IMG/VR virus record: IMGVR_UViG_3300050120_000170
Coordinates: 1-64,000 of that record
Direction: 5' to 3' (one strand)
Length of the DNA: 64,000 nt
From: a virus
The notes beneath the pieces were generated by a model. It saw only the letters and a list, made by a program, of their open reading frames with translations. It did not search any database and was not told the origin of the DNA. The position numbers and the translations under genes were made by a program. This document shows, piece by piece, positions 17,250-30,332 of the stretch; positions within the stretch are counted from its first letter, which is position 1; each line of letters starts with the position of its first letter.

Positions 17250-17717
17250 ATGATGTTCATATGTAGCGGGAGCCTAGACTACGGGGCTGGGAATACAATA
17301 GCCGAGCTGAGTGATCTTCAGTACGGTTTACTGCGTGGGGCGGTGACGTCCGAGTTCGCAAAGAAGCTGCCCGAGAACCGTTCGGAGTTCAAGCCGGACG
17401 ACTTCCACGGCTGGTCCGAGTGCGTCATGGACGACGTGGAGGTGGAGGCGTTTACCAGGTACGGTATGGAGGTCAAGATGAAGACCGTCCGGGGCCTATC
17501 TAGGGGGGACGCAGGCCCGGTGGTACAGCACGTCACTCAGATTAGTCTTGCCAACATCGGTCTGTTGGAGGTGGATGAGGTCACGTACCAGGAGGACTGC
17601 TGTACGGACGAGCTTCAATCTCTACTAGACGGAGGCTGGCGTATCCTGTGCGTGTGTCCACCAAAGGACGCGCGTAGACCCACCTACATACTCGGACGGC
17701 GGAGGGACAAGAAGTGA
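17250..17717 (+). CDS. hypothetical protein (first gene of modification island)
   Basis: 155-aa ORF. C-terminal DELQSLLDGGWRILCVCP..RRPTYILGR. No function recognised. Confidence 0.55.
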   Translation: MMFICSGSLDYGAGNTIAELSDLQYGLLRGAVTSEFAKKLPENRSEFKPDDFHGWSECVMDDVEVEAFTRYGMEVKMKTVRGLSRGDAGPVVQHVTQISLANIGLLEVDEVTYQEDCCTDELQSLLDGGWRILCVCPPKDARRPTYILGRRRDKK

Positions 17718-18616
17718 CGGACGGTGTAGAGCGGCTCAAGACCTGGATCGTGGAGCGAGAGGCCACCCGGTTCCGCAAGGAGAACAATCTCCCCATGGAC
17801 AACGTCCCGGACGGGAAGGGTGGTACCCGTCCGATCTGGACCGAGGACCCGATCATTGGGGCTTACCGTTTCTGTAACGTCCGGCGGGAAGACGACCGAG
17901 TGACGAAGTGGATAGCCAAGAATTGGCGGACCCCGAACCAGGACGACCCGGACCTCTGGTTTGCGATGCTGGTCGCCCGGTTCATCAATTGGCCGGATAC
18001 GCTGGAGCAGTTGGGCTATCCTATCCTACATACCGGAGCCGAGGCCGCCTGGTCCCTGAGCAAGTTCCTCCAGGTGATGGCCGCTCGGAAAGCACGCAAG
18101 TTGAAGTGCTACACCGGAGCCTATATGGTCCGGGCGGACCGGGATCACGCGGACAAGGCGGCCTACCAGGAGGCCGTCGTGTTCACCCCGATGTGGAAGA
18201 ACCGCTATGCACTACGCCCAAAGAAGGGTGATACGCTAAACAGCTATCATATGCTCCTCGGTCAGTTTCACGGCCTCGGCTCGTTTATGGCGGCCCAGAT
18301 CGTCGCTGACTTGAAGTACGTTGCGCCGCTCTCTAGCGCCTCGGACTGGTGGACGTTCGCGGCCTCCGGGCCGGGATCGCGGCGGGGCATGAACCGGGTT
18401 GCGGGTCGTAAGCCTGACGCCCCCTACACCGAGGACGAATGGCGGGCGGACCTCGGACGGCTTTACCAGAAATTGAGGGAGATGCCTCTCAAAAACGAGG
18501 AGCACAACCTGTTGGAGGGCCTCCACGCCCAGGACATCCAGAATTGTCTCTGCGAGTTCGACAAATACGAACGGGTCCGGCTCGGCGAGGGGCGACCCCG
18601 GAGCAAGTATCCATAA
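17714..18616 (+). CDS. aGPT-pyrophosphorylase-like DNA base hypermodification protein (paralog 1, tentative)
   Basis: WTEDPIIGAYRFCNVRREDDRVTKWI..DDPDLWFAMLVARFINWPDTL recalls the conserved N-terminus of alpha-glutamyl/putrescinyl thymine pyrophosphorylase clade proteins. Recalled from memory, not searched. Confidence 0.5.
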   Translation: MTDGVERLKTWIVEREATRFRKENNLPMDNVPDGKGGTRPIWTEDPIIGAYRFCNVRREDDRVTKWIAKNWRTPNQDDPDLWFAMLVARFINWPDTLEQLGYPILHTGAEAAWSLSKFLQVMAARKARKLKCYTGAYMVRADRDHADKAAYQEAVVFTPMWKNRYALRPKKGDTLNSYHMLLGQFHGLGSFMAAQIVADLKYVAPLSSASDWWTFAASGPGSRRGMNRVAGRKPDAPYTEDEWRADLGRLYQKLREMPLKNEEHNLLEGLHAQDIQNCLCEFDKYERVRLGEGRPRSKYP

Positions 18617-18626
18617 CCAAGGGAGA

Positions 18627-18827
18627 ATGATGATGTTACCCACCAACGAGATTAAACCCAAGGTGGACCTCATAATCGGGACATACCTCAAGGGCGTGAA
18701 GACCCGTCCCGAGGATCAAGCCGTTATCGAAGCGGCAACGGCGCTGGTTACTTCCACCCTGGAGGCCTTCCATGATTTGGTCTACTACATCCAGGAGATT
18801 GAAGGTATTGAGAGGCGACGCCGATGA
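18627..18827 (+). CDS. hypothetical protein
   Basis: 66-aa ORF with a GGGAGA SD, coupled to the neighbouring genes. Confidence 0.45.
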   Translation: MMMLPTNEIKPKVDLIIGTYLKGVKTRPEDQAVIEAATALVTSTLEAFHDLVYYIQEIEGIERRRR

Positions 18828-19726
18828 AAAACCCGATGTGCGTGGAGGGCACTCCTCTGGAGCATTACCCAGAGCTAGGGCTCTGGGTAAAGCGCGAAGA
18901 TTTGTGCTGCCCGCCCGGTCCTCATTTCTCCAAGACCCGGGGCGTGTACGCGCACATCAAGAACCGCCCCGAGGCGGTGATTGGGTGCCTCGATACGTCG
19001 CACTCGCAGGGCGGTTGGGCGACGGCGCAAGCGTGTAAGCTCCTCGGCAAAAAGGCCGTGGTCTTCTACCCCGAGACCGTGAAGATGAGGCGGGACGGAT
19101 ACGAGTTCCAGGAGCAACAACTGCGTCCCCGGGCGCTTGGAGCCTCGCTGGCTCCGCTTCAGGCCGGACGTTCCGCCGTCCTATATCACGCGGCCAAGAA
19201 GAAGCTACGCAAAATCGTCCCCAGCCGGGCCTCGGTCTACATGATGCCCAACGCCCTCAAACTCCCAGAGATGATTGACGAGACCGTGGCCGAGGTCCTC
19301 CGGACGCCCCTCCCCCCGGTTGACCTCGTCATCGTGTCCGCGTCCTCGGGGACGATAGCGGCGGGAGTAATCTCCGGCTTAACCCGGCTCGGCTACACCG
19401 GGGGGATCGTCGTCCACCAGGGGTACAGCCGCCCGGCCCACACCATTCGGAACTATATGGCCACGATGGTGGCTGAGTATTCCAACCGGCTCCTAGTCGC
19501 TCAGAAGCATCCGCATCAGCGCGGGGACGTGGATATTCAGCTCTGGCGGGAGGACTTTACGCTCGTGGACGAGGGTTACAGTTATGGGGACTCAGCTCCG
19601 GCGATCCGGGAGGATCAGGTCCCGTTCCCGTCCAACAAGTTCTATGACCGGAAGGCCCTCTGGTGGTGGTTGGATCAGGGCCGGAAGGTCCACAAGGGCG
19701 AGGTTCTCCTCTGGAACATCGGGTGA
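18824..19726 (+). CDS. PLP-dependent enzyme, tryptophan-synthase-beta/ACC-deaminase-like fold
   Basis: LWVKREDL..FSKTRG (putative PLP lysine) and the SASSGTIAAGV glycine-rich phosphate loop. Confidence 0.65.
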   Translation: MKNPMCVEGTPLEHYPELGLWVKREDLCCPPGPHFSKTRGVYAHIKNRPEAVIGCLDTSHSQGGWATAQACKLLGKKAVVFYPETVKMRRDGYEFQEQQLRPRALGASLAPLQAGRSAVLYHAAKKKLRKIVPSRASVYMMPNALKLPEMIDETVAEVLRTPLPPVDLVIVSASSGTIAAGVISGLTRLGYTGGIVVHQGYSRPAHTIRNYMATMVAEYSNRLLVAQKHPHQRGDVDIQLWREDFTLVDEGYSYGDSAPAIREDQVPFPSNKFYDRKALWWWLDQGRKVHKGEVLLWNIG

Positions 19727-20520: not shown

Positions 20521-20933
20521 AACGGTTCGACAACATATCAACCGAGGACCTTACCCAACAGGAGCACGACCTGCGGACGGAGGCTTGTCTCATGAAGTTG
20601 GAGGTTCAGAGGCGAATGCTGGCCGATTGCCCCGCGAAGTGCGGTTGGGTCTACCCGATTATTGACGGGCGTTTTAAGGGCCGGTATATAATGGTGTCCC
20701 AAGTTATCGTGGAGTACAAGGATCGCTGGGAGACACAGGGAAAGACGAAGAAGCCCTGCGGGTTCGTCTGTACTATCCACGGGGTCCTGAGGGGGACCTC
20801 TACGAGGAGAGACGGCTTTAACATCAATCACATCGTCCTCTGGAACAGCACTTTAGACTACACGAAGGGAGTCAAGGGACCCCGAGACTATAACCAATAT
20901 CACCATACATCCGGGAACGAGGACGACGAATAA
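20517..20933 (+). CDS. hypothetical protein
   Basis: 138-aa ORF. Visibly lower GC than its neighbours. Confidence 0.5.
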   Translation: MKRFDNISTEDLTQQEHDLRTEACLMKLEVQRRMLADCPAKCGWVYPIIDGRFKGRYIMVSQVIVEYKDRWETQGKTKKPCGFVCTIHGVLRGTSTRRDGFNINHIVLWNSTLDYTKGVKGPRDYNQYHHTSGNEDDE

Positions 20934-22309
20934 TGGATCACGCAGCCTGGTTACGAGACGGCCTCGATGGAGCCGACGAAGAACTGAAGAAATCGTACCA
21001 ATACTTCATGCGGGTAGACCCGGATCAGCGGGACTTCCTCGGACCTATCGTTAAGATTGACGATCCGGTAACGGGACGCCAGATGCGAACCCGAGTTGGG
21101 AAGGTGGGTATGGTTCGGGGTGCCAAACCCGAGAACATGAAGGACGTCACGATCTATATGGACCCGCTGCCGCACGTCCGTATCGAGAAGGGCAAGGACC
21201 TCCAGGGCTGGTATCAGGGCAAGCAGCTCTCGGCTCCGGGATCGCGGGAGCGGCCCTGTATGACAGACGCGATCCTCACCGAGCCCTACGGCGGCTTTTG
21301 CACTGTGGGCTGCTCGTTCTGCTATATCAACTCCGGGTTCCGGGGCTATCGTGGCTCCGGCTTGATTACTGTCCCGATTGGCTATGGTGCGCACGTCCGG
21401 AAGCAGTTAGCCTCAATGCGAACCTCGGCGGCGGGATACTTCTCCAGCTTCACCGATCCGTTCCTCCCGTTGGAGGACTACTATCACAACACCGAGGAGG
21501 GCGTCCGTGCTTTTACAGATAACGGATTACCAGTCTTTTTCCTCAGCAGACTGGCGTACCCCGACTGGGCAATTGATGCCTTGCGGGCCAATCCGTATAG
21601 TTACGCCCAGAAGTCCATTAACACTCCGGACCCGGACGATTGGAAAAAACTTTCTCCTGGTGCCCTTCCACTCATGGACCATCTCGATGAGATCAGGGCA
21701 CTGCGGGCAGCTGGGATTTACGTCAGCATACAAGTCAACCCCATCATCCCCGGGATCGTAACTCACGACGACGTGGAGAAGCTTTTCGGGATGCTCGCCG
21801 AGGCCGGAGCCAACCACGTCATTGTAAAGTTCGTGGAAGCTAACCACCCCTGGGCCGGGGCGATGGTAGAACGGATCAACAAGCGGTTCGGCGACAACCG
21901 AGGCGCGGCCTTCCGGGACCTGTTCACCGAGAATAGCTGCGGAGGCCAGAAGACGGTCACCGAGGAGTATCGCCGGGAGGGCCACACCCGCTATATGAAG
22001 CGGGCGACCGAGCTGGGTATGACCTATTCGCTGTGCTACGAGTACACGAAGAAGTCTGGTGAATGGCACTCTATGGGGCCGGAGTTCATCACCTCGGACC
22101 AGTGCCACGGCCACCGGGTCCCGATGCATACGAGGAGTGGCCCGGGGCAGCCGTTCCGTCCACTCGGAGAATGCCCACCCTCGGGATGCCTGTCATGCTC
22201 GGACGGCAACCGGGGTGTGCCTCGTTGCGGCTCTGCCCTCCTCGGGGAGGCTAAGGCACTGAGGATCGCAGACCTGAGAAAAGACCCATTCAAGGAGGTA
22301 GACGCATGA
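20933..22309 (+). CDS. radical SAM enzyme (SplB/DNA-photolyase-like architecture)
   Basis: GGFCTVGCSFCYINSGFRGY carries the CxxxCxxC cluster motif. 458 aa with a Cys-rich C-terminus. Confidence 0.8.
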   Translation: MDHAAWLRDGLDGADEELKKSYQYFMRVDPDQRDFLGPIVKIDDPVTGRQMRTRVGKVGMVRGAKPENMKDVTIYMDPLPHVRIEKGKDLQGWYQGKQLSAPGSRERPCMTDAILTEPYGGFCTVGCSFCYINSGFRGYRGSGLITVPIGYGAHVRKQLASMRTSAAGYFSSFTDPFLPLEDYYHNTEEGVRAFTDNGLPVFFLSRLAYPDWAIDALRANPYSYAQKSINTPDPDDWKKLSPGALPLMDHLDEIRALRAAGIYVSIQVNPIIPGIVTHDDVEKLFGMLAEAGANHVIVKFVEANHPWAGAMVERINKRFGDNRGAAFRDLFTENSCGGQKTVTEEYRREGHTRYMKRATELGMTYSLCYEYTKKSGEWHSMGPEFITSDQCHGHRVPMHTRSGPGQPFRPLGECPPSGCLSCSDGNRGVPRCGSALLGEAKALRIADLRKDPFKEVDA

Positions 22310-23082: not shown

Positions 23083-23154
23083 ATTATTAGGTTAAACGGC
23101 GCACCAAGGGAAACATGGATTATTAGGTTAAACGGCGCACCGAGGGAAACATGG
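23083..23154 (+). repeat. tandem 36-bp duplication spanning the ribosome-binding site and start codon
   Basis: ATTATTAGGTTAAACGGCGCACC(A/G)AGGGAAACATGG twice, with 1 mismatch. The second copy supplies the ATG at 23151. Confidence 0.9.
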
Positions 23155-23990
23155 CAGCAGACAGTACTAAGATCGGGGTCCGAGAGTTCGGCGACCTCCT
23201 CATTAAGACCCAGGACCTGGATCCAACGTATGTGGGCCTCCATGGTGCGGGTCTGGAAGTGGCTCAGCTCTCCCGCTGGCTCCTAGCTTACTGGTGTTTT
23301 TACCACGTGGGCCTCGCCTCCTGGCTCTCCGAACATACCAACAAGGACTATTGGCGCTGGATGGGGGAGGCGGCGGCTAATATAGCCCGGCCCCCGAATG
23401 CCCGTTACGAGCGTTGGCCCCGGGCTCCGGAACGCCGCCACTTCCGAGGTCAGAAGTGCGTGGACGCCGTTGACTGGCTCTCCAAGAAGGAGCCGGAGCA
23501 TTGGGTGGGAATGTTCCTTGACGCCCCGAACCGGGTCCGGAATGCAGGAGCCTGGACGGATAAGCAGGTTATGAAAAAGGTCCAAGATTGGCCGTTGTTC
23601 GGTCCCTGGATCGCGTTCAAGGTCGCCGATATGCTGGAGCGTTGCGCGGGCGTCCCGGTAAAGTTTGACCCCAACATCGCACTGATGTACGACGAGCCCC
23701 GGGCCGGGCTCGGGCTCTGCCAGCTCCACTCTCCGCCGGAGTACGCCCACCTGTCCCAGACGGATTGGTACAACGCCCTGTCTTTGTACTTCCGGGCGAG
23801 GCTGGCCCCCCCGGCTCGGGATCGGACTTGCGGCCCTCAGGAGGTGGAGACGGTCCTCTGTAAGTGGAAGTCCTATATGGGTGGACATTACCACCTCGGA
23901 AAGGATATCACCGATCACCGCAACGCCCTAGACGGTTGGGGGATTACGGCGGATCGGATCAAGAAGGCAATGCCGGAGGAGGTGAAATGA
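23151..23990 (+). CDS. aGPT-pyrophosphorylase-like or glycosylase-fold hypermodification protein (paralog 2, tentative)
   Basis: 279 aa. WLLAYWCFYHVGLASW..ERRHFRGQK..GPWIAFKVADMLER. Call rests on gene context and recalled family features only. Confidence 0.4.
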   Translation: MAADSTKIGVREFGDLLIKTQDLDPTYVGLHGAGLEVAQLSRWLLAYWCFYHVGLASWLSEHTNKDYWRWMGEAAANIARPPNARYERWPRAPERRHFRGQKCVDAVDWLSKKEPEHWVGMFLDAPNRVRNAGAWTDKQVMKKVQDWPLFGPWIAFKVADMLERCAGVPVKFDPNIALMYDEPRAGLGLCQLHSPPEYAHLSQTDWYNALSLYFRARLAPPARDRTCGPQEVETVLCKWKSYMGGHYHLGKDITDHRNALDGWGITADRIKKAMPEEVK

Positions 23991-24589
23991 TTGCTATCAA
24001 TATCAGGGGAACCGGGGGGAGCGGGAAGTCCACACTGGTCCGCAAGTTGATCGACCTCTACCCGAACCACGCGAATATTCTGGAGGAGAAGCGCAAGCGG
24101 GCGATGGCGACGTGCCACTGGTTCGGAGATAAGCTTAAAGACAGTCCGGCGGTTCGGCCTCCCGGCCTGTTTGTCCCGGGGCACTACGAGACGGATTGCG
24201 GCGGCTGCGACACGGTCAAGACCGTGGATAAGGTCTATGATCTGGTGCGGGCGTCCGCCCTCTGGGACGGCAACAACGTCCTCTACGAGGGGATCATGGT
24301 TATGGACGACGTGACCCGGGCCGTTGCCTTTGACCAGGATTTGAAGAAGGCCGGAGGCCGCCTGGTCGTAGTCAGCTTGACTACGACCATTGACGAATGT
24401 CTCGCAGGCATCCGGCAGAGGCGAGGCGCAGAGAAGGAGGCGGCCAAGCCCCTCAACGAGAAGAACACCCGGGACCGGATGAAGCGGCAGGAGAACAGTC
24501 TCCATCGCCTCAAGCAGGCCGGGGTGGAGCTGCGCAAGTTGTCGCGGGAGGACGCTTTCCTCCAGATCAGGGAATTGTTGGGGGTCTAG
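23987..24589 (+). CDS. P-loop kinase (5-hydroxymethyluracil DNA kinase-like)
   Basis: Start at the ATGA overlap. MIAINIRGTGGSGKSTLVRKL Walker A, about 200 aa, next to the pyrophosphorylase-like gene. Confidence 0.6.
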   Translation: MIAINIRGTGGSGKSTLVRKLIDLYPNHANILEEKRKRAMATCHWFGDKLKDSPAVRPPGLFVPGHYETDCGGCDTVKTVDKVYDLVRASALWDGNNVLYEGIMVMDDVTRAVAFDQDLKKAGGRLVVVSLTTTIDECLAGIRQRRGAEKEAAKPLNEKNTRDRMKRQENSLHRLKQAGVELRKLSREDAFLQIRELLGV

Positions 24590-25053
24590 TGAAGCCAGTT
24601 ATCGTGGGGATGAATAACCCTCTCTCGGGACGTTCGGAGCATGCGCTGTACCCGTTCCCGGAAGGGTGTACCGGACACCGGCTCTGGGTGCTTCTGAATA
24701 AGCGAACGGGGGCCTCCCAGGAGGATTACCTGGAGGCATTCGAGCGGCGGAACCTGCTTAACGAGCGGGTCTGGAATTTGAACAAGGCCCGGGACGCGGC
24801 CTCAAAGCTTATCCTGGAGATGAGGGGGCGCACCGTCCTCGTCCTCGGGGCGGAGGTCCGGACGGTTCTCAAACTGCCGGTGATGCTCGTACACCCGCAG
24901 GAATTGTGGGGCGTGACCTGGAGGCAACTCCCACATCCTTCGGGTCGTAACCCCTGGTACATGAAGGCGGGCAACCGGGAGGTCGCGGAGCTGCTCCTAG
25001 AGGAGCTGTTCCGGCTTCCACAACTAGGCCCAAGGGAGCCGATGATGCTATGA
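24589..25053 (+). CDS. uracil-DNA-glycosylase superfamily protein, SMUG-like motifs
   Basis: The GTG overlaps the TAG. VIVGMNNPLSG versus SMUG motif GMNPGP, and LPHPSGRNPWY versus HPSPRNP. Confidence 0.5.
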   Translation: MKPVIVGMNNPLSGRSEHALYPFPEGCTGHRLWVLLNKRTGASQEDYLEAFERRNLLNERVWNLNKARDAASKLILEMRGRTVLVLGAEVRTVLKLPVMLVHPQELWGVTWRQLPHPSGRNPWYMKAGNREVAELLLEELFRLPQLGPREPMML

Positions 25054-25502
25054 CGGTCCTCAGCGCACAGACGATCCTCCGGCTGGGGATCGTAATCCCC
25101 TGCCACGAGGCCTGGAAGGACGAGCACGGCAATTCCGCCGGGCTCTCGGGGTGTGGCTACGACATCACGCTGGAGAAGGAGATAGCCCTCCATCCGGGGT
25201 GCCACCTGCTCTGTGCCGCGCAGCAACAGTTTTCTCTCCCGAACAACGTCATGGGCGTCGTCCACGACAAGTCCTCGCTCGCCCGGCGGGGCCTCGCCGT
25301 CCAAAACACGGTCCTGGAACCGGGCTGGCGAGGCTTCCTGACCCTGGAGGTCACGAACCACGGCCACTCTTATATGCGCCTCGCCGAGGGAGCCGCCATT
25401 GCCCAGGTGGTGTTTCACTTCCTGGACGAGCCCACCCTCCTCCCCTACGCGGGAAAGTATCAGGACCAGGAACCCGGTCCCCAGAAGGCAAGGAGCAAGT
25501 AG
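25050..25502 (+). CDS. dcd: dCTP deaminase/dUTPase-fold enzyme
   Basis: GYDITL..DKSSLARRGLAVQNTVLEPGWRGFLTLEVTNHG, a typical Dcd/Dut beta-barrel signature. Confidence 0.8.
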   Translation: MTVLSAQTILRLGIVIPCHEAWKDEHGNSAGLSGCGYDITLEKEIALHPGCHLLCAAQQQFSLPNNVMGVVHDKSSLARRGLAVQNTVLEPGWRGFLTLEVTNHGHSYMRLAEGAAIAQVVFHFLDEPTLLPYAGKYQDQEPGPQKARSK

Positions 25503-25503
25503 A

Positions 25504-26694
25504 ATGCACGTCATACACGCCCGGAACGTCAGCGCGGCCCTCCCTCAGGGGTTGGCCTTCCTATCCAGCTGCGGTATTTGGGAGGAAACCCGAGCCGGGC
25601 GAGCCCTCGTCTCCCCCGTCCCCGTCGTCACAGCCTACACCAAGCCCCGGGAGCGGGTCCTACTTTCCCCGATCCGGGACGCCAATCCGTTCTTTCATCT
25701 CGCCGAGGCGCTGTGGATGCTCCAGGGTCGGGCTGATAGCAAGTTCCTGGACAACTTCATTCGCGACTTCGGCAGCCGGTTCGCGGAGCCGGGGGGAGAC
25801 GTTCATGGGGCCTACGGACGGCGCTGGCGGGGTCACTTTCAACAGAGCCAGAAGGGCTTCAGTGGGACCTGGGGGCTCAGGGTTCTAGACCAGCTGGCGT
25901 CCGTCGCTCGGGAGCTGAAGGACAACCCGGGCTCCCGCCAGGTCGTCCTCACGATGTGGGACCCGGGAGCGGACCTCGGGATTGCTGGCCTGAAGGACCG
26001 GCCCTGTAACACCCATATATACTTCCGGCTCCGGGATGAGGCCTACCAGAACCCACCTGTAACGGACCAGAACTCAGCGGAGCATGAGGCCCGGATTGCG
26101 CGCGGGGAGCATATGGTTCTGGATATGACCGTCCTCTGCCGTTCCAACGACATCGTGATGGGGGCCTACGGCGCGAACGCCGTCCACTTCTCCGTCCTTC
26201 AGGAATACCTAGCCTCCAAGATCGGCGTGCGGGTGGGGACTTACTATCAGGTCTCGAACAACTTCCACGCCTACGAGCGGGACCTCAACTTGCTCGCCAA
26301 GCGGAACCATGACAGCGGGTCTCATTACGCGGTGGAGGACGAGCTGAAGGACCTCTCTTATGAGGAGCGGCGGGTGAGCCCCCACCGGCTCGTGGATAAC
26401 CCGGCGACTTTCGATGGTGAGCTGCTTTGGCTGATGGATGCCTACGAGGCGGTGTTGGGGCAGGACACGGCTGACGAGAGTATCCACTCTCACGCCGAGG
26501 ACCTCGGCAACGGGTTCCTCGCCCATACGGTCTGGCCCATGCTGATGGCGCATCGGTTCTACCGGCGGGAGCAATACGACCCGGCTTTCCAGTGGGCGGA
26601 TCGGATTGAGGCTAAGGATTGGGGACGGGCCTCCGTGGAGTGGCTCCGCCGCCGCGAATTCATGTCCCAACATAAGAAGGAGAAGTTAGCTTGA
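25504..26694 (+). CDS. thymidylate-synthase-family pyrimidine hydroxymethylase (divergent ThyA homolog)
   Basis: AEALWMLQGRADSKFL, HGAYGRRWR, NPGSRQVVLTMWDP, DRPCNTHIYF (catalytic Cys), CRSNDIVMGAYGANAVHF. 396 aa with insertions. Confidence 0.8.
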   Translation: MHVIHARNVSAALPQGLAFLSSCGIWEETRAGRALVSPVPVVTAYTKPRERVLLSPIRDANPFFHLAEALWMLQGRADSKFLDNFIRDFGSRFAEPGGDVHGAYGRRWRGHFQQSQKGFSGTWGLRVLDQLASVARELKDNPGSRQVVLTMWDPGADLGIAGLKDRPCNTHIYFRLRDEAYQNPPVTDQNSAEHEARIARGEHMVLDMTVLCRSNDIVMGAYGANAVHFSVLQEYLASKIGVRVGTYYQVSNNFHAYERDLNLLAKRNHDSGSHYAVEDELKDLSYEERRVSPHRLVDNPATFDGELLWLMDAYEAVLGQDTADESIHSHAEDLGNGFLAHTVWPMLMAHRFYRREQYDPAFQWADRIEAKDWGRASVEWLRRREFMSQHKKEKLA

Positions 26695-27245
26695 GACGAG
26701 AACAAATCATGGCGTCCCGGCAGCTCGCCGGGCGCGTAGAGCGGTGGCACACCTGGCCAATGATCCGGCGGCCTACCGTGATGGAACACGCCGGGCGGGT
26801 TGCTTCGCTGTTCTGCGAGCTGTGGGGTATCCCCCGGGGCGAGGTCCTGTATTATTGCCTCCACCACGACCACGGTGAGTTTACGGCGGGCGATGTGCCG
26901 TTCAGCGCCAAGGAGCTGGCTCCCAACCTTCGGGAGAGCATGAACTTTGCCGAGGCTATCGGGCGGGATCGGCTCGGGATTATCCTGCCGGAGATCAACC
27001 AGGAGGAGTTCCTCCGGTTCAAGATTTGCGACCTCCTGGAGATGTTCGAGACGGCCATCGTGGAGTGGAATATGGGGAACCGCTACGCGGGTTGCGTGGT
27101 GGTGGACTGCGCTAATACGGCCCTGGATATGGCGCACAAGGTAGACCTCCTGGTGAGTGGAAACCGGACGGCCTGCCGTGACTATATCGAGGGCTGGGTG
27201 TACAAGAACGGCTACAAGGGAGCAGCAACCTATGACGTCTTCTAA
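26691..27245 (+). CDS. HD-domain 5'-deoxynucleotidase (YfbR-like)
   Basis: RWHTWPMIRRPTVMEHAGRVA..YCLHHDHGEFTAGDVP. TTG start with an AAGGAG SD. Confidence 0.65.
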   Translation: MRREQIMASRQLAGRVERWHTWPMIRRPTVMEHAGRVASLFCELWGIPRGEVLYYCLHHDHGEFTAGDVPFSAKELAPNLRESMNFAEAIGRDRLGIILPEINQEEFLRFKICDLLEMFETAIVEWNMGNRYAGCVVVDCANTALDMAHKVDLLVSGNRTACRDYIEGWVYKNGYKGAATYDVF

Positions 27246-28326
27246 CATGGAACATATGAAGCACATCGACGCGGTGGTGGACAGCGACACCGCCGTGCTC
27301 CGCCAGAAGGAGAGCACCTATCAGGGCTCGTGGAAGGCCGCCGGGGGCCGTTCGGCCTGGTTCATGTTCCGGCGCAACATGGACCGGCTCCTCTCGATGA
27401 TGAAGAAGCCTCCAGAGGTGGACGGCTTCTCGATGGTGGACCTGGACGATTGTATCCAGCAGGCCTGGTCCGAGGCGGACAAGGCCTCCGGCGACTGTAC
27501 CATGGACGTTAGCATCGTCCAGTACCTCCGGGACAGCTACGTCTCCGAAAATATCTTCGCCAAGATACGGGAAAACCCATTGGGGCAGGACGGTACCGTG
27601 CTGGCTTGTCTCCGGGACCTCCGCCGCTACGCGATCCTCATCGAGGCGGAGATGGTGGGCCGGGGCGTCTTGACGCCCGAGGAGCGCGGGGGGGAGTGGG
27701 ACCGGGAGAGCAAGGAACAGCTCCTGGCTCCCGAGAAGGAACGTAAAATCCTGGAGCGGGCTCTCGGGTTCGGAGAAGGCAGCCTGGACCTATACACTTT
27801 CTGCGCTCAACTTATGGGGGTTGATCGCCAGGTGGCCAAGGAGGAGATTATCAAGCTACTCTACGGAGGGCCAAACCCGGAAACCAAGGTAGAACACATT
27901 GAGGTCAAGGTCATAGCCTCGCCCGAGAATGGCTCCCAGCATGCCAGCCTCGTTCCCTGGGCCGTTTCTACCAGCTGGCAGTACAAGCAGGGATACAACG
28001 CTAACTCTACCACACGCTCTATGTTTGATCGTTGGTGGCACCAGCAAGCTCCCGGGGTTTACGTTATGGAGACCGCCGTCCTGGTGAATGATTCCTTGGT
28101 ACCCGAAGAAATCGGCCACCTCTACATCCGCTCAGGAAACTTCTGGGTGGCCCTGATCGAGCGGTGCCCACCCGACGCCCGCGACTGGTTCCCCCGGTTA
28201 CGACGGGAGGTTAACTCCAAGGAACATGACGAGCTGCCGGCCTGGCAGAATAGCATGTACGCTTGGAACCAGAGCGGGAACAAGTGGGTTATCGAGCGGC
28301 AACACGAGGCCTGGGCACGCGACTGA
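27232..28326 (+). CDS. protein with MazG/DUF1599-like N-terminal domain and unknown C-terminal domain
   Basis: KESTYQGSWKAAGGRSAWFMFRRNMDRL..LRDLRRYAILIEAEM resembles phage all-alpha NTP-PPase-like domains. Confidence 0.4.
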   Translation: MTSSNMEHMKHIDAVVDSDTAVLRQKESTYQGSWKAAGGRSAWFMFRRNMDRLLSMMKKPPEVDGFSMVDLDDCIQQAWSEADKASGDCTMDVSIVQYLRDSYVSENIFAKIRENPLGQDGTVLACLRDLRRYAILIEAEMVGRGVLTPEERGGEWDRESKEQLLAPEKERKILERALGFGEGSLDLYTFCAQLMGVDRQVAKEEIIKLLYGGPNPETKVEHIEVKVIASPENGSQHASLVPWAVSTSWQYKQGYNANSTTRSMFDRWWHQQAPGVYVMETAVLVNDSLVPEEIGHLYIRSGNFWVALIERCPPDARDWFPRLRREVNSKEHDELPAWQNSMYAWNQSGNKWVIERQHEAWARD

Positions 28327-30332
28327 TGGCCAAGCCGCGTAACCCGCACATTGGCGGGCAACAGGAGCCGTTGTTCCTCCCGGATAGCTCGTGGGTTGCT
28401 CCTACAAGCCTCCCTGATCTAAGGCGACATAAGAGGGTCGCCTTAGATACGGAGGAACGAGACGACGGCCTGGCTGCCTCCCGTGGTCCGGGCTGGGCCA
28501 TTAAGGCCGGGTACATCTCGGGGTACTCCATGGCCTGGGACGGGGGAGCGATGTACGCCCCGGTCCGCGATCCGGACACGGCGAACCTGGACCCCGAGAC
28601 CGTGGTCCGCTGGATTGAGGATCATCGCAAGGCGGGCGTCCAGTTTATATTCCAGAATAGCAATTACGATATCGGGTGGATGACCACCGAGGGTATTGAC
28701 GTCCGGGCCTGGACCAATATCGAGGATACGATGAACCGGGCCGTCTTAATCGACGAGACCCAGTACACCTACAACCTAGACGACCTCTGTAAGCGCCGAG
28801 GGATACCCGGGAAGGACGAGGCCTCGCTCCTGGAAGTGGGGGCCGCGTTCGGGTACCACACCCGGAAGGAGATCAAGTCAAACCTCTGGCGGTTCCCGGC
28901 CCGGCATAAGGCCCAGTACGCGATTGCGGACGCTGTATCCACTCTCGCCCTGTTCGATGTTCAGCAGGCCGATATTGACGACCAGGAGCTGGGGGACGCC
29001 TACCGGCTGGAGATGGACATTGTCCCGATGGTCGTGGAGATGCGCCGCCGGGGCGTGAAGGTCAACGTAGAGCGAGCGGAGCGGGAGCGGGAATACTGTC
29101 TCGGGGAGCGTGACCGGGTATTCGAGGAACTCCGCCAGAAGACCGGCGAACGGATGGGCATGGAGGAGATTGGAAAGAATACCTTCCTCCAGAGGCTGTT
29201 CCAGGTTCACGCCCCGCAGATAGAGATACCTCGGACGGCCCCCTCAGCCAAGCACCCGGGCGGACAGCCCTCGTTCACCGCCGGGTCTACCGGCTGGATG
29301 CCGAAGGTGAAGCACTGGCTTCCTCAGCTCCTCATCCAGGCAGACAAGTACAATAACGCAGCGGAGAAGTTCCTCAAGGGCTACATCATCGACTTTGCGC
29401 ACCGGGGCCGTCTCCACGCCTCGATTAACCAGCTGCTCGGGGAGGACGACTCAGGGGCTATTAAGGGCACCCGGACGTTCCGCTTTTCATACAGTGAGCC
29501 ACCGCTCCAGCAGATGACGGCGCGTGACGAGGACCTCGCTCCGCGCATCCGGGGTGTGTTCGAGCCCGAGGAGGGGGAGAGCTGGCTCAGCGCGGACTAT
29601 TCTCAGCAGGAATACCGGCTCATTGTTCACTTCGCGTGTCTCCTGGAATGTACCAAGGCGGAGGTCGCGGCCCAGCGTTACATAGACGACCCGAAGACGG
29701 ATTATCACTCCATGGTTGCGGACCTGACCGGCCTGGAGCGCAAGCCCGCGAAGGATACCAACTTTGCGAAGTCCTACGGGGCCGGGATACCGAAGTTTGC
29801 GGCGATGATCAACAAATCCGTGGAGGAAGCCCGGGCGATCATGAAGCAGTACGACACCCAGATGCCCTTCGTCAAGGAGCTGAACGAGATTTGCCAGAAG
29901 CTGGCGGATGAGCGAGGCTACATCCGCCTGCTGGACGGAGCCCGGTCTCATTTCCCGAGGTGGGAGTTGGCCTGGCGACCGAAGGGTGAGCCGCCGGTAT
30001 CGGTGGACAGCCTAGAGAAGGCCCGGGCACTCTGGCCCGGGAAGCGGATCAAGCGAGCCGACACGAAGGACGCCATGAACCGGCTGATTCAGGGATCGGC
30101 AGCCCGGCAGACCAAGGAGGCTATGCGGGCCTGCTGGCGGGAGGGCTACGTCCCGTTGCTTCAGCTTCATGATGAACTCGACTTCTCGATTGCGAAGAAG
30201 AAGGACGGCGACAACATCGTGGTGATCATGCGCGATATCCGGCGGCTCAAGGTCCCGATGCTGGTAGACGCGGAATACGGGCGGACCTGGGGCACCGCGA
30301 AGCACGAGTGGAAAGAGAGGATGGTGGCATGA
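28326..30332 (+). CDS. family A DNA polymerase with 3'-5' exonuclease domain
   Basis: ALDTEE (ExoI), DYSQQEYRL (motif A), KDTNFAKSYGAG (motif B), LLQLHDELDF (motif C). ATGA start overlap. Confidence 0.9.
   Translation: MAKPRNPHIGGQQEPLFLPDSSWVAPTSLPDLRRHKRVALDTEERDDGLAASRGPGWAIKAGYISGYSMAWDGGAMYAPVRDPDTANLDPETVVRWIEDHRKAGVQFIFQNSNYDIGWMTTEGIDVRAWTNIEDTMNRAVLIDETQYTYNLDDLCKRRGIPGKDEASLLEVGAAFGYHTRKEIKSNLWRFPARHKAQYAIADAVSTLALFDVQQADIDDQELGDAYRLEMDIVPMVVEMRRRGVKVNVERAEREREYCLGERDRVFEELRQKTGERMGMEEIGKNTFLQRLFQVHAPQIEIPRTAPSAKHPGGQPSFTAGSTGWMPKVKHWLPQLLIQADKYNNAAEKFLKGYIIDFAHRGRLHASINQLLGEDDSGAIKGTRTFRFSYSEPPLQQMTARDEDLAPRIRGVFEPEEGESWLSADYSQQEYRLIVHFACLLECTKAEVAAQRYIDDPKTDYHSMVADLTGLERKPAKDTNFAKSYGAGIPKFAAMINKSVEEARAIMKQYDTQMPFVKELNEICQKLADERGYIRLLDGARSHFPRWELAWRPKGEPPVSVDSLEKARALWPGKRIKRADTKDAMNRLIQGSAARQTKEAMRACWREGYVPLLQLHDELDFSIAKKKDGDNIVVIMRDIRRLKVPMLVDAEYGRTWGTAKHEWKERMVA

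Follow-up and report, generated by a model that had tools for sequence, protein, structure and literature searches.

In a viral genome fragment, we identified a compact protein of the uracil-DNA glycosylase (UDG) superfamily that probably works as a catalytically competent, stand-alone DNA glycosylase, with uracil in DNA as its most likely substrate. The fragment, here called the window, is the whole 64,000-nucleotide stretch of DNA that was analysed (positions 1–64,000 of the IMG/VR virus record IMGVR_UViG_3300050120_000170), and the protein of 154 amino acids is encoded at 24589–25053 on the plus strand. Its translation, its homologues and an AlphaFold2 model all point to the UDG superfamily, where it belongs to a large, virus-restricted branch of stand-alone proteins of ~150 amino acids that is uncharacterised and not recognised by domain databases. 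As judged from Pfam and PHROG searches and from a comparison with phage M6, the gene is surrounded by a thymidine hypermodification operon of the M6 type, which includes a 5-hydroxymethyluracil (5-hmU) DNA kinase, an amino-acid:DNA transferase (AADT) and a ThyA-family enzyme that is the presumed dUMP hydroxymethylase. Phages replacing thymidine by 5-hydroxymethyldeoxyuridine (5-hmdU) must keep uracil out of their DNA, which has so far been shown only for polymerase-fused UDG domains.

The preliminary description of this DNA had called the protein SMUG-like and had proposed a structure prediction and structural comparison. We built an AlphaFold2 model from an alignment of 60 homologues (A1), which had a mean predicted local distance difference test score (pLDDT) of 95.1 and a predicted template modelling score (pTM) of 0.89. 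In an exhaustive VIA-align structure search of 48,161 representatives, the first 16 places were all taken by UDG-superfamily chains (Z 5.8–10.7) with alignments spanning residues 1–150. Because these chains fill the top 16 places and unrelated folds start at Z 5.5 at most, the assignment of the modelled protein to the UDG superfamily is secure. A Foldseek comparison of the model with the PDB returned TDG, MUG, family 4 UDG, SMUG1, UNG and UdgX, and solved complexes of TDG with 5-hmU were among the structural matches. Across the structure searches, the highest Z values for UDG folds were 10.7–11.1.

The ranking within the superfamily did not bear out the SMUG-like identity. The VIA search placed a family 4 UDG (1l9g) first, with Z 10.7, a root-mean-square deviation (rmsd) of 3.4 and 137 aligned residues, followed by the PolA-UDG domain of phage phiLo (9qhs; Z 10.3, rmsd 4.0, 136 aligned), UdgX (Z 10.2), MUG (Z 9.8 and 9.4), and family 5 and TDG (both Z 9.2). 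SMUG2 reached only Z 7.4, SMUG1 from G. metallireducens (5h93) Z 7.0, and family 1 enzymes Z 5.8–6.5. SMUG1 also gave Foldseek template modelling (TM) scores by query of 0.46–0.53, and at ~230–270 amino acids (solved chains 215–247) it is longer by ~100 residues. On the model, the nearest solved relatives are therefore the compact family 4, 5 and 2 types and not SMUG1.

Two sequence motifs, both quoted in the preliminary description, lie at the places of UDG-superfamily motifs A and B in the model: VGMNNPLSG (residues 6–14) and HPSGRNPWY (residues 116–124). Among the 60 homologues of A1, the residues N9, N10, P11, L20, P22, P24, F51, R53, N55, H116, P117, S118 and G119 are invariant, and with N9, N10, P11 and H116–G119 among them the motifs stand far beyond chance. 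Motif A (G7-M8-N9-N10-P11; 24607–24621, plus strand) follows directly after strand 1 of the model (residues 4–7). In a wider set of 266 family members, any of N, D, H, S, V, L, I and C can stand at position 9, while position 10 is N, occasionally D, in nearly all and is then followed by P. Read from this alignment, the family motif A is G-x-x-[N/D]-P, in which N10-P11 probably corresponds to the [D/N]-P that forms the catalytic dipeptide of UDG families 1–3.

Motif B (H116-P117-S118-G119-R120-N121; 24934–24951, plus strand) follows the last strand of the model (residues 109–114). HPSG is kept in ~240 of the 266 members, the R and N after it vary (HPSGLN, HPSGRC), and H116 occupies the place of the His that families 1, 3 and 4 have in motif B. 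A third conserved element, F51-E52-R53-R54-N55 (24739–24753, plus strand), lies at the end of strand 2 (residues 52–55 in the model), and the pattern F[DE]RxN recurs in almost every member. From its position in the modelled fold, N55 is a candidate for the Asn with which UNG, SMUG1 and TDG read uracil at its N3/O4 edge and which has the same place in those enzymes. Since the catalytic-type positions are the most conserved columns of the alignment, an active enzyme is favoured over the repurposed inactive binder that had been suggested earlier, which would not need invariant residues of this kind.

The combination of motifs sets the family apart from each of its structural neighbours. Family 4/5 UDGs and UdgX (T. 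maritima 1l9g, T. thermophilus 1ui0 and 2d3y, M. smegmatis 6ail) are the best matches, with Z 9.2–11.1 over ~135–143 aligned residues, and share the motif B His. However, their motif A reads GE[AG]PG, GLAPG or GEQPG instead of G-x-x-N-P, they are ~40–50 amino acids longer, and they bind a 4Fe-4S cluster through four Cys ligands. In the family of the window protein only one Cys, C27, is conserved (in at least 90% of the 60 sequences), so that an Fe-S site of the family 4/5 type is absent. MUG and TDG of family 2 (structural Z 9.2–10.8) have Asn-Pro in motif A like the window protein, yet their motif A is one residue shorter and they lack the motif B His (NPSGLS, MPSSSAR) that is invariant in the family of the window protein. 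After motif A, the sequence G-x-N-P-G-L-S...aromatic-P...R-F-W of MUG can be set against G-M-N-N-P-L-S...L-Y-P...R-L-W of the window protein, a weak hhalign match that serves as a hint of register only; against E. coli Mug, the family profile gave a probability of 2.2%, with the motif A region alone aligned. The signature is thus a mosaic: motif A is of the Asn type, which it shares with families 2 and 3, motif B is of the His type known from families 1, 3 and 4, and the modelled structure comes nearest to families 4, 5 and 2. This unusual pairing of G-x-x-N-P with H-P-S-G, without Fe-S cysteines, would by the usual motif criteria make the branch a UDG family of its own.

SMUG1 is the classical 5-hydroxymethyluracil DNA glycosylase, and TDG and MUG accept 5-hmU as well. 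A SMUG-like enzyme in this operon could act in quality control, removing 5-hmU left untailored by the kinase/AADT pathway. SMUG1 and the window protein indeed share an Asn-type motif A with a His-type motif B, and HPSPRN and HPSGRN agree at five of six positions, although HPS also occurs in families 1 and 4. The TDG–5-hmU complexes among the structural matches and the translational coupling of the gene to the 5-hmU kinase, together with the fact that most related loci have it beside the kinase or the ThyA-like gene, also speak for such an activity. We nevertheless regard it as unlikely. Besides the weak structural match to SMUG1, the motif A of the window protein (GMNNPL) differs from GMNPGP of SMUG1 in that N-P is preceded by one residue more and is not followed by G-P. 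Moreover, thymidine positions are supplied as 5-hmdU in such a phage, and excision of 5-hmU would riddle its genome with abasic sites.

The distribution of the family also bears on this question. The ThyA-like gene is its most constant neighbour: of 38 related IMG/VR loci, 25 have it 0.4–3.5 kb downstream of the UDG-like gene, and 24 of these 25 have the HD gene too. The kinase gene lies upstream in 22 of the 38, in about a dozen related loci its end is no more than ~15 bases from the UDG-like start, and AADT was detectable in only four of the 38. Five records, with members 38–42% identical, have neither a ThyA-family gene nor a kinase homologue, and two of these are phage genomes with 100% and 94% completeness. 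Here, the gene has as its neighbour ThyX, a class II ribonucleotide reductase, an SbcC-like ATPase, a DNA methylase or a helicase. In phage phiM9, a family member occurs together with a canonical ThyA. Members beside a ThyA-like gene and other members show no difference in their motifs, and in a maximum-likelihood tree, the backbone of which is unresolved, the label 'next to ThyA-like' changes at least three times. That members with the same motifs occur without ThyA-family gene and kinase, and in phiM9 with canonical ThyA, goes against the 5-hmU-recognising role suggested in the preliminary description. Of that interpretation, the UDG-superfamily fold and the places of the motifs are upheld by the model; the SMUG identity and 5-hmU recognition are not.

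The same distribution has a bearing on uracil. The activity must be tolerable both in genomes with ordinary thymine and in genomes derived from 5-hmU, for which reason excision of uracil fits, and excision of 5-hmU or thymine does not. We infer that the protein would be active as a glycosylase, would take uracil as its substrate and would spare 5-substituted uracils.

Were the enzyme directed against foreign DNA, it would remove thymine or some other base from the DNA of the host or of a competing phage and spare the 5-hmU-derived genome, as a weapon or as a mirror of Brig-type defence. The UDG-fold proteins Brig1 and Brig2 do attack differently modified DNA (bioRxiv 10.1101/2025.10.29.685425), and the near restriction of the family to viruses and its structural closeness to TDG and MUG are in line with such a function. 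It is quite unlikely, however, since some members reside in phages with ThyX or canonical ThyA, which are for this reason presumed to have thymine in their DNA and in which a thymine glycosylase would be suicidal. The motifs of ThyA-like-linked members do not differ from those of the others, and we know of no UDG-superfamily enzyme that removes thymine from normal A:T pairs.

In sequence space, the branch is extensive. A word-indexed search returned 285 homologues of the 154-residue protein, and a profile search with A1 yielded 3014 clusters at 50% identity with E ≤ 1e-3, 1282 of them with E ≤ 1e-10; nearly all of the family clusters are 140–180 amino acids long. Scanning one genome per species for 185,579 prokaryote species gave only three matches, all on contigs of metagenome-assembled genomes (MAGs) and all of the GMNNP clade. 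On these searches, the family appears essentially virus-restricted. The three MAG contigs may themselves be viral. ESM Atlas neighbours are clusters of viral 'hypothetical protein' sequences, in one of which 12% of the members carry PF03167, and the sole match of the window protein in the profile libraries was PHROG 12275 (function unknown). The window protein does not reach the gathering score of PF03167. A literature search for a compact phage UDG, a Yuavirus UDG or a new UDG family found nothing.

Three named phages encode full-length homologues that are only ~30% identical to the window protein: phiM9 (gp040), M6 (gp48; gp09 in LKO4) and Bordetella phage MW2. The phiM9 gp040 protein has GMNNP and HPSG, matched the family profile with an hhalign probability of 99.6, and its record carries a pfam03167 note; its BFVD model matched the model of the window protein with TM scores of 0.83–0.87 (0.80–0.87 for the phiM9 and MW2 models taken together). 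M6 gp48 matched the family profile with a probability of 99.4 and PF03167 over its whole length with E 0.002, at 18.7 bits and thus below the cut-off of 24.3. PDB sequence searches with gp48 and gp040 gave no UDG match. A number of M6-like phages (LKO4, AN14 and others) have records in which the homologue is labelled 'uracil-DNA glycosylase', as it is for MW2; as for phiM9, these labels are computational annotations. The phiM9 genome (NC_028676.1; 119523–120422 and 147896–148246, our loci L047 and L049) encodes a canonical full-length ThyA (323 bits) and in addition a divergent 260-residue ThyA-family ORF (47 bits).

Like the window gene, M6 gp48 stands beside a thymidine hypermodification cluster. 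Its motif A resembles that of families 4 and 5 (GQAPG versus GMNNP), it has HTSGRN in place of HPSGRN, and its gene comes after a ribonucleotide reductase gene and lies five genes ahead of the kinase, whereas the window gene comes directly after the kinase. Within its locus (L040:6995–7501), gp48 lies three genes upstream of the characterised hypermodification genes gp51–gp54. With gp48 in the family, the prediction of a uracil glycosylase is directly checkable in the best-studied hypermodification system.

This system also bears on a different idea, raised in part in the preliminary description, that the protein is an accessory factor and not a glycosylase: a subunit that flips bases or binds DNA, by which 5-hmU or 5-phosphomethyluracil is presented to the kinase or the amino-acid:DNA transferase, or an inactive binder. 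The one-base overlap of the gene with the kinase gene and the close spacing of the two genes in about a dozen loci would suit such a partnership, and the same pathway has put glycosylase folds to use in transfer chemistry, as AADT has a predicted helix-hairpin-helix glycosylase-like fold (PMC8989533). However, M6 gp54 and gp51 suffice in vitro for phosphorylation and glycine transfer in reaction mixes from which gp48 is absent (PMC8989533), M6 gp48 is not adjacent to the kinase gene, and some family members are found in phages without a kinase. We thus consider an accessory function very unlikely, in particular that of an obligatory subunit of the kinase. A predicted complex of the kinase (alignment A2) with the UDG-like protein (A1) had a score of 0.01 (mark 0.32), which speaks neither for nor against binding.

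For a glycosylase acting on uracil, a parallel exists. The PolA-fused UDG domains of thymine-modified phages of the SP15/YerA41/phiLo group are active, excising dU and bypassing modified thymine (Missoury et al., PMC13697223). In these phages dU is of no use to the tailoring pathway and would be attacked by the host UDG, which makes its removal necessary, and many metagenomic phages encode a UDG in trans (PMC13697223). The PolA-UDG fusions of SPO1, SP10, SP15, YerA41 and phiLo have the same fold as the window protein and work in the same setting, in which 5-hmdUTP is produced via dCTP deaminase, dUTPase and a ThyA homologue before thymidine is tailored. They differ in their motifs, which in YerA41 are VLIGY and MYSL (PMC13697223) in place of GMNNP and HPSGRN, and in their fusion to the polymerase: the window protein stands alone, 3.2 kb upstream of a PolA gene. 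This family A DNA polymerase (28263–30332, plus strand) matched PF00476 (E 4e-34) plus an exonuclease domain only, with no fused UDG domain found by Pfam, and PF03167 had no match anywhere in the 70.5-kb phage genome. Since other thymine-modified phages use PolA-UDG against dU, while the phage of the window has a UDG-less PolA and no other UDG, we read the ORF as a UDG acting in trans.

The proposed mechanism starts with the nucleotide supply. The phage would make 5-hmdUTP from dCTP through the consecutive action of a dCTP deaminase (DCD)/dUTPase-fold enzyme and the ThyA-like hydroxymethylase, and because this route passes through dUTP and dUMP, some dUMP is expected to be incorporated into phage DNA. 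Such uracil could be neither phosphorylated nor tailored by the kinase/AADT pathway and would expose the genome to host Ung. The phage glycosylase would flip out and excise the uracil, sparing 5-hmU and hypermodified thymine, and the family A polymerase of the phage, together with host or phage repair functions, would restore the excised site. The protein would thereby be the in-trans equivalent of the polymerase-fused UDG domains of SPO1-, SP10-, SP15-, YerA41- and phiLo-type phages.

Several observations weigh against a uracil glycosylase. The 154-residue protein had no Pfam match even at E ≤ 10 and no NCBIfam match, and searches of the PDB with the single sequence and with the 60-sequence profile returned chance matches only (E above 0.3). 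Motif A has one residue more between Gly and [N/D]-P than the canonical G-x-[D/N]-P. The hosts of the phage presumably already have Ung, and the coupling to the 5-hmU kinase and hydroxymethylase genes is tight and recurrent beyond the needs of a generic repair role. The host protein Brig2, which has a UDG fold, targets M6-type modified thymine (bioRxiv 10.1101/2025.10.29.685425); as UDG-fold enzymes can thus recognise hypermodified thymine, the fold does not fix the substrate. No biochemical data on any family member were found in the literature. It is conceivable, though doubtful, that the protein is a dedicated component of hypermodification that recognises a 5-substituted uracil (5-hmU, 5-phosphomethyluracil or an intermediate) and either edits incompletely tailored positions or presents the base to the kinase or transferase. 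In that case, it would be a phage-side counterpart of host Brig2.

Should the window protein prove active and specific for uracil, it would rank among the smallest known UDGs and be a natural enzyme that tells uracil from 5-hmU and hypermodified thymine, which would be useful for base mapping. A phage UDG that serves a thymine-modified genome performs an expected job of a kind already known; the branch performing it here is one that domain databases have yet to recognise.

The boundaries of the gene are well defined. The frame 24589–25053 is free of stop codons, while the opposite strand has many, and the gene lies between the kinase gene upstream and the DCD/dUTPase-fold gene downstream; ORF, length and position are as first described. 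A GGGGG ribosome-binding run (24580–24584), the TAG stop of the kinase gene (24587–24589) and the GTG start of the UDG-like gene (24589–24591) can be read in succession on the plus strand (24580–24591), such that stop and start share one base. From this overlap, the kinase and the UDG-like gene are predicted to be translationally coupled. The GTG at 24589 corresponds to the M-K-P N-terminus of the homologues. A longer ORF of 218 amino acids, starting at ATG 24397, was rejected as the gene because the homologues all begin at the M-K-P of GTG 24589; it would also overlap the kinase gene by 190 nucleotides. At its 3′ end, the UDG-like stop forms an ATGA overlap with the ATG at 25050 of the DCD/dUTPase-fold gene.

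The kinase (23987–24589, plus strand) is a P-loop kinase of the M6 gp54 type, supported by PHROG 800, a weak match to PF18748 and 25% identity to M6 gp54, which falls in PHROG 800 by its label 'terminase small subunit'. The ORF list gives it as a frame of 241 amino acids from GTG 23864 to 24589, which overlaps the AADT gene by 127 nucleotides. Its true start is likely the ATG at 23987, located after GGAGGAGG and in an ATGA overlap with the AADT stop. From this ATG, the kinase has 200 amino acids and begins a few residues before the P-loop, like its homologues. With this most likely start, the AADT, kinase, UDG-like and DCD genes are chained by stop/start overlaps.

The hypermodification island begins upstream with a HMUDK_hel gene (17714–18616; PF18723), followed by a pyridoxal phosphate (PLP) enzyme (18824–19726), an HNH gene, a radical S-adenosylmethionine (SAM) protein (20933–22309) that is 62% identical to M6 gp53, and AADT (23151–23990; PF18724). 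Downstream of the UDG-like gene lie the DCD/dUTPase-fold enzyme (25050–25502, plus strand; PF22769 with E 6.6e-19, PHROG 1663 with E 2e-39) and the ThyA-family enzyme (25399–26694, plus strand; PF00303 with E 1e-19, PHROG 5131 with E 5e-93). An HD nucleotidase gene follows and then an ORF of 389 amino acids (27157–28326), which precedes the PolA gene. The 389-residue ORF had no match in Pfam or PHROG, and ~20 related loci keep a homologue of it after the HD gene, with E values as low as 5e-62. In a megablast comparison of the island with cultured phages, the sole match was 72.8% at the radical SAM gene, in two Rhizobium phages, which leaves the phage without a close cultured relative.

The gene often recurs between the genes for the 5-hmU DNA kinase and the dUMP hydroxymethylase. 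A block of kinase, UDG-like, ThyA-like and HD nucleotidase genes and the homologue of the 389-residue ORF is found repeatedly in uncultured phages (loci L002–L021, L024–L026, L036 and L038), and an AADT homologue lies within 6 kb in only four loci of this block. Many of the block phages without AADT may attach something else to 5-phosphomethyluracil, or may encode the transferase elsewhere. At one IMG/VR locus (L019:5998–7395), the UDG-like frame continues into ThyA-like sequence as a single ORF of 465 amino acids, with other sequence in place of the LLEELY helix that otherwise forms the C-terminus; a genuine fusion could explain this, as could a frameshift or an assembly error. At another (L031:6007–7457), in a phage that has neither ThyA-like nor kinase genes, the UDG-like gene is directly followed by one for a radical SAM domain protein, an arrangement reminiscent of bacteria, where family 4 UDG is paired with radical SAM proteins.

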